A stretch of DNA of 64,000 nt, taken from an uncultured delta proteobacterium (GTDB lineage Bacteria; Desulfobacterota; Desulfobaccia; Desulfobaccales; 0-14-0-80-60-11). The notes under the pieces were generated by a model. The model had not been told where the DNA came from, searched no databases, and worked only from the letters and a program-made list of their open reading frames with translations. The translations under genes were made by a program, and so were the position numbers. Below are positions 14,472 through 59,993 of this stretch, piece by piece (within the stretch, counting starts at the first letter, position 1; each line of letters starts with the position of its first letter). Location: assembly GCA_963797235.1 (NCBI GenBank), contig CAWCOX010000004.1, positions 462,400 through 526,399 of the forward strand, read 5' to 3'.

Positions 14472-14540
14472 GATTAGCCCATGTGAAACTAATAACAATG
14501 ACTTTATATTGTTGGCAGTTGCAAATATTAATGCTTTTCC

Positions 14541-14641
14541 AGAAAAGCCAAACCCGTCGCGAGGCGAGGGCGGAAAGCCACGGGTCTCATGGATGGAGAC
14601 AGCCGGGTCGCCTGGAAGCATAACCCGGGATCCATTTTTTA
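14541..14641 (+). promoter_or_regulatory. c-di-GMP-I (GEMM-I)-like riboswitch with intrinsic terminator
   Basis: RNA reads GCCAAACC-CGUC-GCGA-GGCG-AGGGCGGAAAGCC-ACGGGUCUC..GAGAC-AGCCGGGUCGCC, followed by hairpin CCGGGU..ACCCGG plus U6. It has the same blocks as the copies at 57.4 and 57.6 kb. It also resembles the Vc2 aptamer as I recall it (CAAACC, GNRA hairpin, GGGACGCAAAGCC, AGCGGGGUUACC). Confidence 0.7.
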
Positions 14642-24783: not shown

Positions 24784-24947
24784 TTTAATCCTCCTGCTGC
24801 CGGGATGGAGGGCAATAAAAAAGCCCCTGCTTCACCAAAGGTGAACACAGGAGCCATCAGCGTCGGCGCGGTTCGGGTGGATTTATCCTCCCAGGCGGAC
24901 CCCATCGCCTCGCCCCCCAAATTAAGGCCGCGGCTCAGCGAATGCAA
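24784..24947 (-). promoter_or_regulatory. Structured 5' leader with intrinsic terminator upstream of the antiporter (candidate riboswitch or attenuator)
   Basis: Possible promoter TTGCAT-17-TAATTT (24947-24919). The leader contains hairpins GGCG..CGCC and GGGAGGAU-AAA-UCCACCC. A 14-bp terminator stem (24823-24856) plus U6 (24817-24822) sits ~35 nt before the RBS and GTG. Confidence 0.45.
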
Positions 24948-54464: not shown

Positions 54465-54848
54465 GTGTCTACCACGATGTCCAAAGTCATCTCATATCGC
54501 GCCCTGGCCCGGCAGCAGCAGCTCAACTACCTGAAGCAAAAAGATCGGGAGTATCGCGAGCGGGAAGATTTCCTGGGCCGAACGCAAAAGCTCCTGTTCC
54601 GGTTGGAGGCCCAGATGCGCCAGGCCGAGATGCAGCAACTGGAAGTCTTTCGGGAGCTGGCGGCCTACTTCAAGATTCCTCTGAACTTCCCCGACCTGGG
54701 AGACCGGGTGGGGCTGCAGCGCTGGTTCGCCACCGATCCCTTTCTGCAGATTCTGCAGGCCTTCTTTGCCGGGCGCCTCGCGGTTGAGGAGTGCCACCAG
54801 AAAATCATGGAACTGCAGGGGAACCCTGGTCCGGCCCGGGAAGATTAA
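54465..54848 (+). CDS. Hypothetical protein (coiled-coil-rich)
   Basis: 127-aa ORF with native-like composition. I recognise no family. Confidence 0.4.
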
Positions 54849-57785: not shown

Positions 57786-58321
57786 GCTATTTTTAACTAA
57801 TTTCGAAAATATTTTCTTATATTAAAATAATTTATATTTATTATAAATTTAAAAAATATAAGTTATTTTGCAACCGATTCATCCAAGCTTTAAGCTTGAT
57901 GGATTATCAGCCGCTTTCCTCAATTTTTCTATAGGTAAAATTACCTATTCGGGACTAGGTATTTTTACTTAAAATACTAGCCGGACGTGGAACCCGGTTA
58001 TTGAGAGCGGCAGACTTGTTTTCGCCAGGGTCCTTCCCGGGTTCCCCTGCCCTAAGTATATGCAAAGGCCGGACCATAAGCTTAATTAATTATAAACAAC
58101 TAAAACCACAGGATAAATAGAAGAATCGTCCTGAAGCAATGGTTCAGATCTTGAAAAGAAAGGGGCAATCAATGTTCACCAAAAGAAACATAATGTTCTG
58201 GCTATTCACAAAGAAAGAATGAGGATGGCGATCGGCAGGACCCTGCGGCTTCCTTCTCCCCTGGGAGCCCGGCTGCCTGGGTTTTTCGGCAAATTTTGGC
58301 AAATAGGGAGAAGGGCAGGCT

Positions 58322-58440
58322 AAAAAAAGCTGGCCAGGAAGGGGGAGGACCCGGCCAGCTTACCCATCGGCAGGAGAAAGCTCTGAACTCACCGGAGGGG
58401 GCAAAAAGGTTATGGGTTCAGGTTCTTTCTCTTATACATT
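58322..58440 (-). ncRNA. Candidate sigma-54-dependent sRNA 1 (C-rich loops)
   Basis: Runs from the predicted TSS (~58440) to the terminator GCUGGCCGGG-UCCUCCCCCUUCC-UGGCCAGC-U7. The 5' stem is GAAAG..CUGAAC / GUUCAG..CUUUC with loop UUUUUGCCCCCUCC. The linker is UUUCUCCUG. Confidence 0.6.
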
Positions 58441-58450
58441 GTATTGTTTA

Positions 58451-58466
58451 TGCAGAAATCATGCCA
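58451..58466 (-). promoter_or_regulatory. Sigma-54 (-24/-12) promoter
   Basis: The minus strand reads TGGCATG-ATTT-CTGCAT, against the consensus TGGCACG-N4-TTGCW. Confidence 0.65.
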
Positions 58467-58668
58467 TGTAATACTAAACCAGGCATTACTTGGTAAATCA
58501 GTAGGTTAGGCTGCTAGCCAAATTTCTCGGGTCGGTTTTTGGTTCAATATTTTGGACGAATCGACCGGCCAAATCCTCCCAACCAAGCCCACCCCGGGGT
58601 TGGTCGGCCGCAAAAATTTTGACGCGGGGGGGGCAATTTTTCCCTGATATCGATCCGGTCACCAGGGC

Positions 58669-58783
58669 AAAAAAAAACTGGCCGGATGGGGGAGGAACCC
58701 GGCCAGTTCGGTGAAAGGAGAAAATGGTATATGAACTTTGATTAAGGGGGGGATGTGGGTACCTTAATGGGGTTCATATACGC
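58669..58783 (-). ncRNA. Candidate sigma-54-dependent sRNA 2 (paralogue of sRNA 1)
   Basis: Perfect 10-bp outer stem GUAUAUGAAC/GUUCAUAUAC and 7-bp inner stem AUUAAGG/CCUUAAU. Loop UACCCACAUCCCCC. Linker UUUUCUCCUUUC. Terminator ACUGGCCGGG-UUCCUCCCCCAUCC-GGCCAGU-U9. Confidence 0.6.
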
Positions 58784-58793
58784 CAATATTTAA

Positions 58794-58809
58794 TGCAGGT
58801 ATTGTGCCA
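58794..58809 (-). promoter_or_regulatory. Sigma-54 (-24/-12) promoter
   Basis: The minus strand reads TGGCACA-ATAC-CTGCAT. Confidence 0.65.
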
Positions 58810-59164
58810 AATACCGGCTTTGTTATTTTATATCATATTTCAATATGTTATCCCTTAGTCGCTCAAACCCCTCGGTTCAATAATTTATACCGAGGAAGGG
58901 TTTTTGTATATCATTATAGCCTCATCCATCTAATTTAATTTAACAATAGCGTTTTTAGGTCTAATTCAATTTTTTGTTCAAGCCGCGGCGCCGGCCGGGA
59001 ATCTAGCCAAAATTGTCTGGTGCTCTGGTCAGCTGGTCAGCAACCGCGGCCGGCTGCACCGACGCCTCCGGGGCGGAAGCGGGCGCCACTCCTGCGACTT
59101 TTTACGGGAAAGAGGCCGCTAAAACGATTATAATGACTTTATCAAACGAGAGGTCAGACTTTCC

Positions 59165-59512
59165 ATGTGTATCTTCTGCGGGGGGCAATGCGGCGGCGCC
59201 GGTGAATTTCTGATTTCCATCGGTTTGCCGTTTTTGGTGCTCTATTTTTTGAGGATAAAGCAGGCGCTGGTCAGGCTAGGAAATAGAATTGTGCGCCGGG
59301 GCCAAGCAATGCCGGCTGCACCGGCTAAATGTGAATGTTGTGGCCAGCCGCGGCAGGATTGTCAAGCGCCGCAAAGTCAATCCATCGATCTCAAAGACTT
59401 AGAGCTGCTTGAATTGAAATCTCAGCATAACGAGTCTACCGAAGTTTCCTTAGAGACAACTAGATTAAATAACCAATTAAAATTAGTAAAAAGAGAGAGT
59501 GTCCGGAGTTAA
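59165..59512 (+). CDS. Hypothetical Cys-rich single-TM protein
   Basis: 115 aa: MCIFCGGQCGG.., a TM segment (FLISIGLPFLVLYFL), then ..KCECCGQPRQDC... Low-GC region. It overlaps the next gene by 14 nt. Confidence 0.4.
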   Translation: MCIFCGGQCGGAGEFLISIGLPFLVLYFLRIKQALVRLGNRIVRRGQAMPAAPAKCECCGQPRQDCQAPQSQSIDLKDLELLELKSQHNESTEVSLETTRLNNQLKLVKRESVRS

Positions 59513-59993
59513 AGGCTGGTTGTTGTTACTATGTTTAAACCTCACTATTTTTATTCCCGCTGTAAATCTTTATCAAATTAATTGTATTCTTGATTTATTT
59601 AATTCTCGCCGGAATAAAATACTCTTATTAATGTTTAAGACGCTATTGGCCTATAACGTCTTGGCAATTGCTACGATGCTATTTCTGGCTATCTTCAGTT
59701 TTTATGCCGGACAGAGGCTTTGGCAGATTAAATCAAGGGCCGTGAAGACCGCCAAGGTATTTTTGGTCACTCAATTATTGCTAATCTTGGTTATCACCAT
59801 TATCCGGCCGATTATGACCGCAACCGTAGATACCGGGGGGCAGGTTTTCGGTGCCATATTAATCAGCTTAATTCCTTCCTTATTGCAGTTTGGCCTCTGG
59901 TACTTATATCTGGCTAAATCGCGTCGAGTCCGTAATACCTATGGTGACGGCGAAGCTAAACTATCTGTGATCCCTCACCTTCTGCAAAATTAA
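59499..59993 (+). CDS. Multi-TM membrane protein (DUF2569-like)
   Basis: 164 aa with 4 predicted TM segments and low GC (~40%). The family call is from general resemblance only. Confidence 0.45.
   Translation: MSGVKGWLLLLCLNLTIFIPAVNLYQINCILDLFNSRRNKILLLMFKTLLAYNVLAIATMLFLAIFSFYAGQRLWQIKSRAVKTAKVFLVTQLLLILVITIIRPIMTATVDTGGQVFGAILISLIPSLLQFGLWYLYLAKSRRVRNTYGDGEAKLSVIPHLLQN

Follow-up and report, generated by a model that had tools for sequence, protein, structure and literature searches.

Several bacterial regulators act through C-rich loops that pair with G-rich ribosome-binding regions, as described for sX13 (PMC3771888), 6C (PMC6486639) and LhrC (PMC4132741). The genes for LhrC and CcsR occur as several copies in tandem, and a two-component system induces LhrC (PMC4132741, PMC3771888, PMC6486639, PMC4615179). 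Non-coding RNAs that depend on sigma-54 have been described in Desulfovibrio (PMC4641369, PMC3333781), and a sigma-54 promoter is predicted for Pxr of Myxococcus and other Cystobacterineae, an RNA of about 108 nt with three stem-loops whose paralogues stand in tandem, each behind a sigma-54 promoter of its own, and change more quickly than the orthologues do (PMC5568312). Finally, the published PEP-CTERM box of the PrsK/PrsR system (Haft et al. 2006) ends in TTTACA and is found about 63 nt upstream of a sigma-54 motif (PMC1569441).

The window analysed here, a 64-kb stretch of the source genome, was compared with 8-21-kb loci of relatives, which were reached via matches to the PanE protein (exact-sequence look-up of the PEP-CTERM and HisI proteins gave no match). 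The Desulfobaccales, sulfate reducers that oxidise acetate, are widespread in soils, wetlands and sediments and have few cultured members, and we know of no characterised regulatory RNA in the group. Units A and B of the window (Table 1) are real, and are two members of one previously uncatalogued Desulfobaccales family of predicted sRNAs. The reading that we favour, and hold to be probable, is that they are tandem genes of one non-coding RNA family of about 115 nt that would be activator-dependent and would pair with G-rich ribosome-binding sites.

Table 1. Features of the two sRNA units and of the neighbouring third promoter, in window coordinates.
Feature	Position	Strand	Basis or remark
Distal upstream box GAACAAAAAATTGAAT, candidate enhancer site	58964..58979	-	Starts 170 nt upstream of promoter A TGGCA
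Proximal upstream box GTATAAATTATTGAACC, candidate activator site	58874..58890	-	Ends 64 nt upstream of promoter A TGGCAC
Promoter A, sigma-54-type -24/-12, TGGCACAATACCTGCA	58794..58809	-	1 of 2 window matches
Small RNA A, predicted ~113-115 nt	58669..58783	-	5' end predicted +/-2 nt; fold, compensatory changes, family model
RNA A helix P1	58781-58772 with 58736-58727	-	Predicted fold
RNA A helix P2	58768-58762 with 58747-58741	-	Predicted fold
RNA A apical loop UACCCACAUCCCCC	58761-58748	-	Predicted fold
RNA A linker CAUUUUCUCCUUUCACCGAA	58726-58707	-	Predicted fold
RNA A terminator stem	58706-58697 with 58687-58678	-	Predicted fold
RNA A terminator loop UCCUCCCCC	58696-58688	-	Predicted fold
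RNA A U9 tract	58677-58669	-	Sequence
Proximal box of unit B ATATTGAACC	58541..58550	-	Ends 74 nt upstream of promoter B
Promoter B, sigma-54-type, TGGCATGATTTCTGCA	58451..58466	-	1 of 2 window matches
Small RNA B, predicted ~118 nt, divergent paralogue	58322..58440	-	Fold; family-model match
RNA B outer stem	58431-58425 with 58380-58374	-	Predicted fold
RNA B inner stem	58421-58416 with 58388-58383	-	Predicted fold
RNA B large loop holding GCCCCCUCC	Between inner-stem strands 58421-58416 and 58388-58383	-	Predicted fold
RNA B terminator stem	58360-58350 with 58338-58328	-	Predicted fold
RNA B terminator loop CCUCCCCCUUC	58349-58339	-	Predicted fold
RNA B U7 tract	58328-58322	-	Sequence
Third sigma-54-type promoter TGGTCCGGCCTTTGCA (58076-58061) and CTGAACC box (58147-58141), uncertain role	58061..58147	-	Box 64 nt upstream

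A pattern scan of the window with TGGCAYN5YTGCW gave two matches, promoters A and B, against 0.33 expected from shuffled sequence, and at least two matches occurred in 2 of 100 shuffles. Both have GG and GC 10 nt apart within TGGCAY-N5-YTGCW, both lie on the minus strand, 343 nt from one another, and about 115 nt beyond each of them comes a strong terminator hairpin with its U tract (U9 in A, U7 in B). The first-pass annotation, which had assigned to both units near-consensus sigma-54-type promoters and GC-rich terminators with U7-U9 tails, was right on both counts. Promoter B is kept in one relative (L001), while in a second (L003) its -24 element is CGGCAT. Across all family members the GG and GC of the promoter are invariant and the spacer is variable: GG-N10-GC was present at a fixed distance in 9/9 genome copies found without the promoter pattern, and of about 123 metagenome copies picked up by the RNA body alone, 119 retained the promoter at a fixed distance, those that depart from the pattern doing so by single-base changes. 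Judged by their sequence, the sRNA genes have genuine-looking sigma-54-type promoters.

Upstream of these promoters, RACAAAAAWTTGAAT starts at 168-172 nt in 32 of 44 loci, and a YTGWAYN box is located at 62-85 nt in 51 of 57 units, with 35 units at 62-65 nt and 12 at 71-75 nt. The two boxes, conserved in position, look like candidate sites for an enhancer-binding activator. The proximal box of unit B is one helical turn farther from its promoter than that of unit A. The window and the loci of relatives contain neither a recognisable sigma-54 gene (rpoN) nor one for an activator, and no protein with a GAFTGA motif is encoded within a few kb of the RNA in any locus, in agreement with the earlier remark that the window encodes no enhancer-binding activator.

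Searches placed the family at 40 loci in 38 species-level genomes, which are Desulfobaccales or MAGs with similar labels, and on 117 metagenome contigs. In two relatives (L004 and L006), identity over the RNA body is 92-98%, against only 68-69% for PanE. In the MAFFT alignment (set A3), 96.2% of the pair cells of the three-helix fold are paired and 12 pairs show compensatory changes; in a separate metagenome set aligned to the model (A6), the values are 97.8% and 10 pairs. Not one of 500 shuffles came up to the observed values, for pairing or for compensatory changes, in either set, and slid controls pair 16-42% of cells. The three C/U-rich single-stranded segments are nearly invariant across the family and are conserved more tightly than the helices. 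Tandem copies are present in 12 genome loci and 20 metagenome loci, many relatives carrying one conserved copy and one or two divergent ones. Genes upstream of the RNA vary; downstream, the usual neighbours are a hypothetical gene and hisI-hisG, and in most loci this hypothetical gene is oriented towards the RNA, with 30-100 nt between it and the terminator.

A homologue search with a covariation check and an Rfam scan had been proposed at the outset. The former found promoter, fold and C/U-rich motifs jointly conserved in roughly 40 genomes and over 100 metagenome contigs, with compensatory changes in both sets; in the latter, Rfam 15 at its gathering scores returned no match for the units, and no hit to LhrC, mmgR, ar14 or ErsA in the window or in 18 related loci. 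The best sub-threshold scores (threshold in brackets) were 23.5 bits (110) for LhrC RF00616, 20.4 (41) for mmgR RF00519, 19.2 (58.8) for ar14 RF02344 and 16 (50) for ErsA RF01719, all far below gathering, and we reject membership of any of these families. Membership of the Qrr family is likewise rejected, since Qrr, as well as GlmY/GlmZ and CrcZ, gave no Rfam match even at E <= 10. The literature, searched for the conserved sequence strings and for sigma-54 together with C-rich sRNAs, yielded no prior description.

The two units differ markedly. Unit A (predicted fold -37 kcal/mol, z = -7.1; 136.6 bits against the family covariance model) is the copy that has been conserved under constraint. 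Unit B (-41.7 kcal/mol, z = -3.8) scores 34.1 bits, E = 3e-5, against a model built from A-type copies; it is intact only in the window, L001 and L003, has uncompensated stem mismatches and is internally deleted in a further relative (L008). Unit B is a young, weakly constrained and fast-evolving duplicate. Two earlier claims need amending. Three exposed C/U-rich motifs had been ascribed to each RNA: the apical and terminator loops are single-stranded in both predicted folds, but most of UUUCUCCU in unit B is paired within the outer stem GAGAAAG/CUUUCUC and is not an exposed linker there. Compensatory pairing had also been read from the comparison of A with B; the predicted folds do contain the stems quoted, but their differences between the units are paralogue divergence, and true covariation is visible across orthologues only.

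As to function, the gene layout (boxes that end about 64 nt and start about 170 nt before a -24/-12 promoter, followed by an RNA predicted to begin directly at its 5' helix and to end at an intrinsic terminator) suggests that the RNAs would accumulate once the activator is switched on. They would then pair with G-rich ribosome-binding regions of several mRNAs, blocking translation or altering mRNA stability. Such pairing is plausible by analogy, because the CCUCC/CUCCU core of the 16S anti-Shine-Dalgarno recurs in the apical loop, in the UUUUCUCCUUU linker and in the terminator loop, because there is a weak resemblance to LhrC, ar14 and mmgR, and because C-rich-loop regulators have been described. 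Pairing with the motifs is equally good for every strong GGAGG site, that of hisG for instance, but is not seen for the adjacent PEP-CTERM gene. A duplex scan of the window with six single-stranded segments was unspecific, its best duplexes being random G-rich stretches, and no PEP-CTERM start region was among the top hits. Two observations sit less easily with the pairing model: one motif of unit B is buried in a stem, and the conservation of the three single-stranded segments goes far beyond what a pairing seed typically shows, for which protein binding would also be a fitting explanation.

The RNAs could instead be decoys, whose repeated C/U-rich single-stranded motifs titrate an RNA-binding protein, the 30S subunit or S1, as CrcZ, CsrB and RsmZ do via other motifs, and pair with no mRNA. 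The presence in each RNA of three such motifs, almost unchanged across the order and more constant than the helices, is what a decoy would display, as is the multi-copy, tandem arrangement of the genes, and CrcZ provides a precedent for a sigma-54-dependent decoy RNA. However, we know of no protein in the Desulfobaccales group that binds C-rich motifs; none is encoded beside the RNA. Moreover, the motifs are the anti-Shine-Dalgarno core and so have a ready-made class of targets for pairing, and we judge titration to be unlikely.

The first-pass annotation had proposed that both RNAs serve specifically to regulate the PEP-CTERM genes beside them, with PrsR as their activator, and form a three-layer module with c-di-GMP riboswitches. 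A third sigma-54-type promoter, overlooked at that time, speaks for such a module: lying between unit B and the riboswitch array, some 880 nt from the first ATG, it points towards the riboswitch/PEP-CTERM array, repeats the TGAACC box with the 64-nt spacing unchanged, and is conserved only in the window, L001, L003 and L008, which are the genomes that carry the riboswitch/PEP-CTERM island. No conserved fold or terminator follows it, so we do not count it as a third sRNA, and it had no match in the metagenome scan. The 64-nt spacing fits the published 62.8 +/- 10.6 nt between PEP-CTERM box and sigma-54 motif (PMC1569441), pairing of the motifs with AGGAGGAGGA, the site of the second PEP-CTERM gene, ranks in the top 1-3% of windows, and PEP-CTERM-like genes recur near the RNA in four other loci (L004, L013, L016 and L050). 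Nevertheless, the evidence weighs against the module: (i) one relative (L002) has neither PEP-CTERM genes nor riboswitches at this locus and yet keeps two RNA copies. (ii) Downstream of the metagenome loci there was a riboswitch in 0/37 and a PEP-CTERM-like gene in 3/37, the conserved neighbours being the hypothetical gene and hisI-hisG. (iii) A sigma-54 promoter was found within 450 nt of a PEP-CTERM-like gene in 0/11 cases, a riboswitch in 8/11. (iv) The upstream box ends in TTGAACC, not in TTTACA. (v) The ribosome-binding site of the adjacent gene is a poor match (9.7th-75th percentile), and hisG does as well as the second PEP-CTERM gene. On this last point the earlier reading was mistaken: CAGGAGGAGGA, placed before the adjacent gene, precedes the second PEP-CTERM gene (ATG 56193), while the adjacent one (ATG 57177) carries GAGGAGAAAC.

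A dedicated module is thus not borne out, and we give it a small chance, smaller than that of a decoy. Riboswitches are found near the RNA only in the small clade of the window and in two other loci, and the adjacency of RNA and PEP-CTERM genes reflects the insertion of an island at this locus in that one clade, not a family-wide partnership. In the Desulfobaccales genomes examined, the PEP-CTERM system appears, from the sequence, to be under c-di-GMP riboswitch control. Within the clade of the window, one activator may drive both sRNAs and the third promoter, in a feed-forward circuit with the c-di-GMP-riboswitch/PEP-CTERM array.

Two further readings are highly improbable. That the units code for very short peptides (MNPIKVPTSPP, 11 aa, in A; MYKRKNLNP, 9 aa, in B, possibly as a leaderless mRNA) could draw on the nearly invariant ATG of GUAUAUG, on the 11-codon frame intact in 31/55 A-type copies and on the 9-codon frame intact in 3/3 B copies, with its ATG at the predicted transcript start, but we reject it: in 24/55 A-type copies indels of 1-2 nt destroy the frame, leaving 1-4 codons or no ATG and the helices intact, neither frame has a ribosome-binding site, the three B copies resemble one another too closely to inform, and the ATG of unit A is conserved because it forms one strand of helix P1. 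That they are cis-acting leaders or attenuators, whose conditional terminators govern read-through to downstream genes, has hardly any credit either and is also rejected, for although the units are co-directional with the riboswitch/PEP-CTERM genes in the window, the next gene, 30-100 nt past the terminator, is convergent in most loci, no alternative antiterminator pairing is conserved beside the strong, invariant terminators, and riboswitch 1 has its own invariant TTGACA-17-TAATAT promoter. The earlier statement that neither unit has a conserved ORF holds for A, and the sequence comparisons support the view that the units are non-coding, independently transcribed sRNA genes.

The same layout may extend beyond this order. 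With unrelated sequence and different upstream repeats it is present in four or five Myxococcota genomes, it is also present in a Steroidobacteraceae genome with a shared linker UUUUCUCCU, and it occurs twice in one unclassified MAG; none of these units of other phyla had an Rfam match at the gathering or the E-value threshold. We tentatively suggest, as a possibility that is for now doubtful, that a sigma-54 promoter followed by a 5' hairpin with a C-rich loop, a CU-rich linker and a terminator with a C-rich loop defines a recurrent cross-phylum class of regulators. If true, this class would couple enhancer-dependent signalling to the repression of strong ribosome-binding sites. For the Desulfobaccales, our results provide a well-supported new RNA family, with alignment, fold and covariance model ready for curation, whose conserved enhancer-type promoter boxes offer a possible handle on the cognate activator and its signal. 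They also add, at a wide phylogenetic distance, another instance of C-rich motifs that seem to target ribosome-binding sites, and they set right a tempting link to the PEP-CTERM sorting system for which support is wanting.

The family can be set beside four groups of described systems: (i) Like LhrC (Listeria), RsaE/RoxS (Firmicutes), sX13 (Xanthomonas), 6C (Actinobacteria), and CcsR/'cuckoo' and ar14 (Alphaproteobacteria), it has several C-rich motifs, placed as in those RNAs in hairpin loops, linkers and the terminator loop; its fold differs from theirs. To our knowledge, these C-rich-loop RNAs use sigma-70-type or stress-sigma promoters, not sigma-54. (ii) The sigma-54-type promoter with its candidate activator sites recalls the enhancer-dependent promoters of Qrr1-5 (Vibrio), GlmY/GlmZ (Enterobacteria), CrcZ/NrsZ (Pseudomonas) and four ncRNAs of D. 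vulgaris, the last a precedent among sulfate reducers (PMC4641369, PMC3333781, PMC3045617), and multiple copies are shared with Qrr; the sigma-54-dependent ncRNA genes of Desulfovibrio adjoin their activator genes, however, and the RNA genes of Desulfobaccales do not. (iii) The PEP-CTERM box regulon also has a box about 63 nt before a sigma-54 motif, compared with 64 or 74 nt here, but that box (17-nt motif 1) ends in TTTACA and the Desulfobaccales box in …ATTGAACC, and its promoters precede PEP-CTERM genes whereas promoters A and B drive terminator-ended sRNAs; the organisms studied here carry PEP-CTERM genes as well, preceded by riboswitches instead. (iv) Pxr, from a different phylum and with no C-rich loops described, lies beside its activator gene nla19, between that gene and one for an NADH dehydrogenase, whereas the Desulfobaccales RNA has no activator nearby and is accompanied by a hypothetical gene and hisI-hisG. 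Set apart in this way by neighbourhood and description, the two families are nonetheless alike in length, in their three predicted stem-loops, in their sigma-54-type promoter, in their tandem copies and in the faster divergence of their paralogues.

We demonstrate here the gene structure, conservation, fold and non-coding nature of a small RNA family and, by sequence, its promoter type. As the first-pass annotation had claimed, the minus strand carries two promoter-terminator units, A and B, one behind the other in the same orientation, and both promoters and both terminators, with their U9 and U7 tails, have been located (see the table). The pattern TGGCAYN5YTGCW has 2 matches in the 64 kb, promoters A and B alone, with an expectation of 0.33. 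The stems claimed for both RNAs are present in the predicted folds (unit A, -37 kcal/mol, z = -7.1 vs shuffled controls; unit B, -41.7 kcal/mol, z = -3.8). The check for an already known family, Rfam 15 on the window, gave no match over unit A or unit B; with relaxed thresholds the units show some resemblance, in every case far sub-threshold, to LhrC, mmgR and ar14, which are C-rich small RNAs, and to ErsA. The reading of these units as small RNAs with sigma-54 promoters is well supported in silico.

Features of the small-RNA locus and of its surroundings in the window
Feature	Position	Strand	Remarks
Unit A promoter	58809-58794	-	TGGCACAATACCTGCA
Unit A RNA, 3' end	58706-58669	-	end of an RNA of ~113 nt; CTGGCCGGGT/ATCCGGCCAG + U9
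Unit B promoter	58466-58451	-	TGGCATGATTTCTGCA
Unit B RNA, terminator	58360-58322	-	end of an RNA of ~118 nt; nearly the same as A's, + U7
Unit B linker	58380-58356	-	
Third sigma-54-type promoter	58076-58061	-	TGGTCCGGCCTTTGCA; between unit B and riboswitch array, facing array
Third promoter with CTGAACC box	58061-58147	-	box exactly 64 nt upstream
c-di-GMP-I-GGC riboswitches	57688-57612, 57474-57398	-	Rfam 15; just downstream of units
c-di-GMP-I-GGC riboswitches, partial/extra copies	56433-56370, 57742-57694	-	
Aptamer stretches complementary to unit B linker	57680-57640, 57464-57425	-	
Conserved hypothetical protein gene	54465-54848	+	~123-127 aa; converges on small-RNA locus, diverges from hisI
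DUF2569 gene	59165-59993	+	overlapping ORFs 59165-59512 and 59499-59993
Fluoride riboswitch	24841-24918	-	elsewhere in window
Classic c-di-GMP-I riboswitch	14537-14615	+	elsewhere in window

Close relatives of the PanE protein encoded 2 kb off carry the label Desulfobaccales or Desulfobacca. Two related contigs with the same gene order (L001 and L003, PanE identity 96% and 92%) keep both units; a third (L002, 78%), without DUF2569, riboswitches and PEP-CTERM genes, retains A and has a second, divergent A-like copy; and two others (L004 and L006, 68-69%) carry one A copy apiece, the RNA body, with 92-98% nucleotide identity, being conserved much better than the neighbouring PanE protein. The search of relatives for homologues succeeded twice: (i) a genome-collection scan with three requirements only, namely the promoter, CCTCCCCC at ~100 nt downstream of it, and a run of T, gave 55 loci vs ~8 chance matches expected, with the A-type RNA in 40 of them, representing 38 species-level genomes; and (ii) a metagenome scan with the RNA body as sole pattern, the promoter being left out, gave 117 contigs. 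Tandem sets of two or three copies, usually one canonical and one or two divergent, occur at 12 genome and 20 metagenome loci, and some copies are dispersed besides, because two MAGs have members on separate contigs (L012 and L061; L017 and L025). The UUCUCCU linker is no longer present in the copy on L061.

Unit B is a paralogue of A, because it matches a covariance model from A-type copies (34 bits, E = 3e-5) and because the two units have in common their promoter, 5' UGUAUA, GAAC/GUUC stem core, CUUUCUCCU and terminator. Unit B is found in the window, L001 and L003 only, its stem mismatches are left uncompensated, its conservation is barely above that of the spacer preceding it, and in the close relative L008 (5025-5144, plus strand) it is internally deleted, the spacer start and the terminator remnant GGGTCCTCCTCCTCCCGGGCCAGCTTTTTTT alone being left; it is apparently a recent copy under little constraint. 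By RNAduplex, its linker is complementary to a stretch found inside each of the two riboswitch aptamers (-29.6 kcal/mol; rank 5-6 among ~16,000 windows), a pairing of doubtful significance because this stretch belongs to an aptamer helix.

In a MAFFT alignment of 55 copies, scored over the 5' helices P1 and P2 and the terminator helix P3, 96.2% of pair cells are paired and 12 pairs show both-sided changes, values reached by 0 of 500 shuffles, whereas slid controls have merely 28-42% of cells paired; RNAalifold recovered all three helices. A separate metagenome set (104 distinct sequences, model-aligned) is 97.8% paired with 10 compensated pairs; compensatory changes support the fold in each set. 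The claimed lack of a conserved ORF is also borne out: the putative 11-codon frame is cut to 1-4 codons, or its ATG is missing, in 24 of the 55 copies because 1-2-nt indels hit the internal loop, and the helices of these copies are intact. The strongest conservation lies in the single-stranded parts of the RNA, namely the apical loop UACCCACAUCCCCC, the linker CCAUUUUCUCCUUUCACCGA and the terminator loop (U/A)CCUCCCCC.

The promoter core GG-N10-GC, whose spacer sequence varies among copies, sits 12-14 nt ahead of the first helix in every genome copy, including the 9 found independently of the promoter, and in 119 of ~123 evaluable metagenome copies, the others having single-base changes in GG or GC. 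Of 57 units, 51 have a proximal box (…ATTGAACC) within 62-85 nt upstream of the promoter; the distance from the end of the box to TGGCA is 62-65 nt in 35 units and 71-75 nt in 12. A distal box, RACAAAAAWTTGAAT, is seen at 32 of 44 loci, with its start 168-172 nt upstream of the promoter. Judged by sequence, this pair of boxes ahead of the promoter has the layout typical of enhancer-dependent promoters. No gene for a GAFTGA-type protein was found within the fetched loci. Just beyond the window edge, a conserved sigma-54-like element, (T/C)GGCA(T/C)-N5-NTGCA, lies ~30 nt 5' of the glmU start codon on the plus strand (L001 6198, L004 6160, L006 5986).

We propose that an enhancer-binding activator would turn the small-RNA genes on, and that single-stranded motifs of the CCUCC/CUCCU type would then pair with G-rich ribosome-binding regions, by analogy with the C-rich-loop RNAs of other phyla that act by such pairing, sX13 (PMC3771888), 6C (PMC6486639) and LhrC (PMC4132741). 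Alternatively, the RNAs may be decoys for a protein partner, a role consistent with the extreme conservation of the motifs. As for the pairing with PEP-CTERM ribosome-binding sites claimed by the first-pass annotation, good pairing is predicted for the second PEP-CTERM gene, whose AGGAGGAGGA site gives a duplex with the RNA motifs in the top 1-3% of windows, and not for the adjacent gene; the hisG site is predicted to pair as well as that of the second gene.

Downstream of the RNA, the conserved context is the convergent hypothetical gene, the family's most constant neighbour, and after it hisI and hisG; most genome loci have this arrangement, as do 21 of 37 evaluable metagenome loci. The hypothetical protein has no match in Pfam or NCBIfam. 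The upstream neighbours are variable (zur/znuABC, hydantoinase, panE, sodC or APS kinase gene). DUF2569 is encoded by one uninterrupted ORF (275-283 aa) in L001, L003 and L004, and the split of this gene into two in the window suggests a frameshift or sequencing error. The proposed three-layer module of small RNAs, riboswitches and PEP-CTERM genes with PrsR is unsupported as a family property: the only genomes with c-di-GMP-I-GGC riboswitches near the small RNA are those of the window's clade (the window itself, L001, L003 and L008) plus L013 and L016; they are found in 0 of the 37 evaluable metagenome loci, 3 of which have a PEP-CTERM-like ORF downstream; and, of 11 PEP-CTERM-like genes on the fetched DNA, 0 have a sigma-54 promoter <=450 nt upstream. 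Such a riboswitch lies within that distance upstream of 8 of these 11 genes, and riboswitch 1 has its own invariant promoter, TTGACA-17-TAATAT. For the window's clade, the predicted third sigma-54-type promoter, conserved solely in the four genomes with the riboswitch/PEP-CTERM island, keeps the PEP-CTERM link alive; the first ~60 nt of its transcript are conserved (GCAGGGGGAACCCGGGAAGG…CUGGCGAG), with neither a conserved fold nor a conserved terminator. The published PEP-CTERM box, with TTTACA at its end, precedes PEP-CTERM genes (PMC1569441); the small-RNA box has a similar spacing, of 64 nt, but differs in sequence.

Units of the same design, with a sigma-54 promoter, a C-rich-loop hairpin and a C-rich-loop terminator, and unrelated in sequence, are present in Myxococcota (L024, L032, L035, L039 and L014, with upstream repeats TGCAAT…TTGCAAT), in one Steroidobacteraceae genome (L049, with a long inverted repeat upstream and the linker UUUUCUCCU), in one unclassified MAG (L011 and L037) and in L019; their upstream repeats are different, and none of these units matched Rfam. 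They raise the possibility that such a design is recurrent across phyla, but as a lead only, because part of it was built into the scan pattern. Sigma-54-dependent small RNAs are known, including Qrr, GlmY/GlmZ, CrcZ, Pxr and four Desulfovibrio ncRNAs (PMC4641369, PMC3333781, PMC5568312), and so are C-rich anti-ribosome-binding-site RNAs. Since no match of the family to any of these was detected by sequence or model, it is new, though its kind is known.
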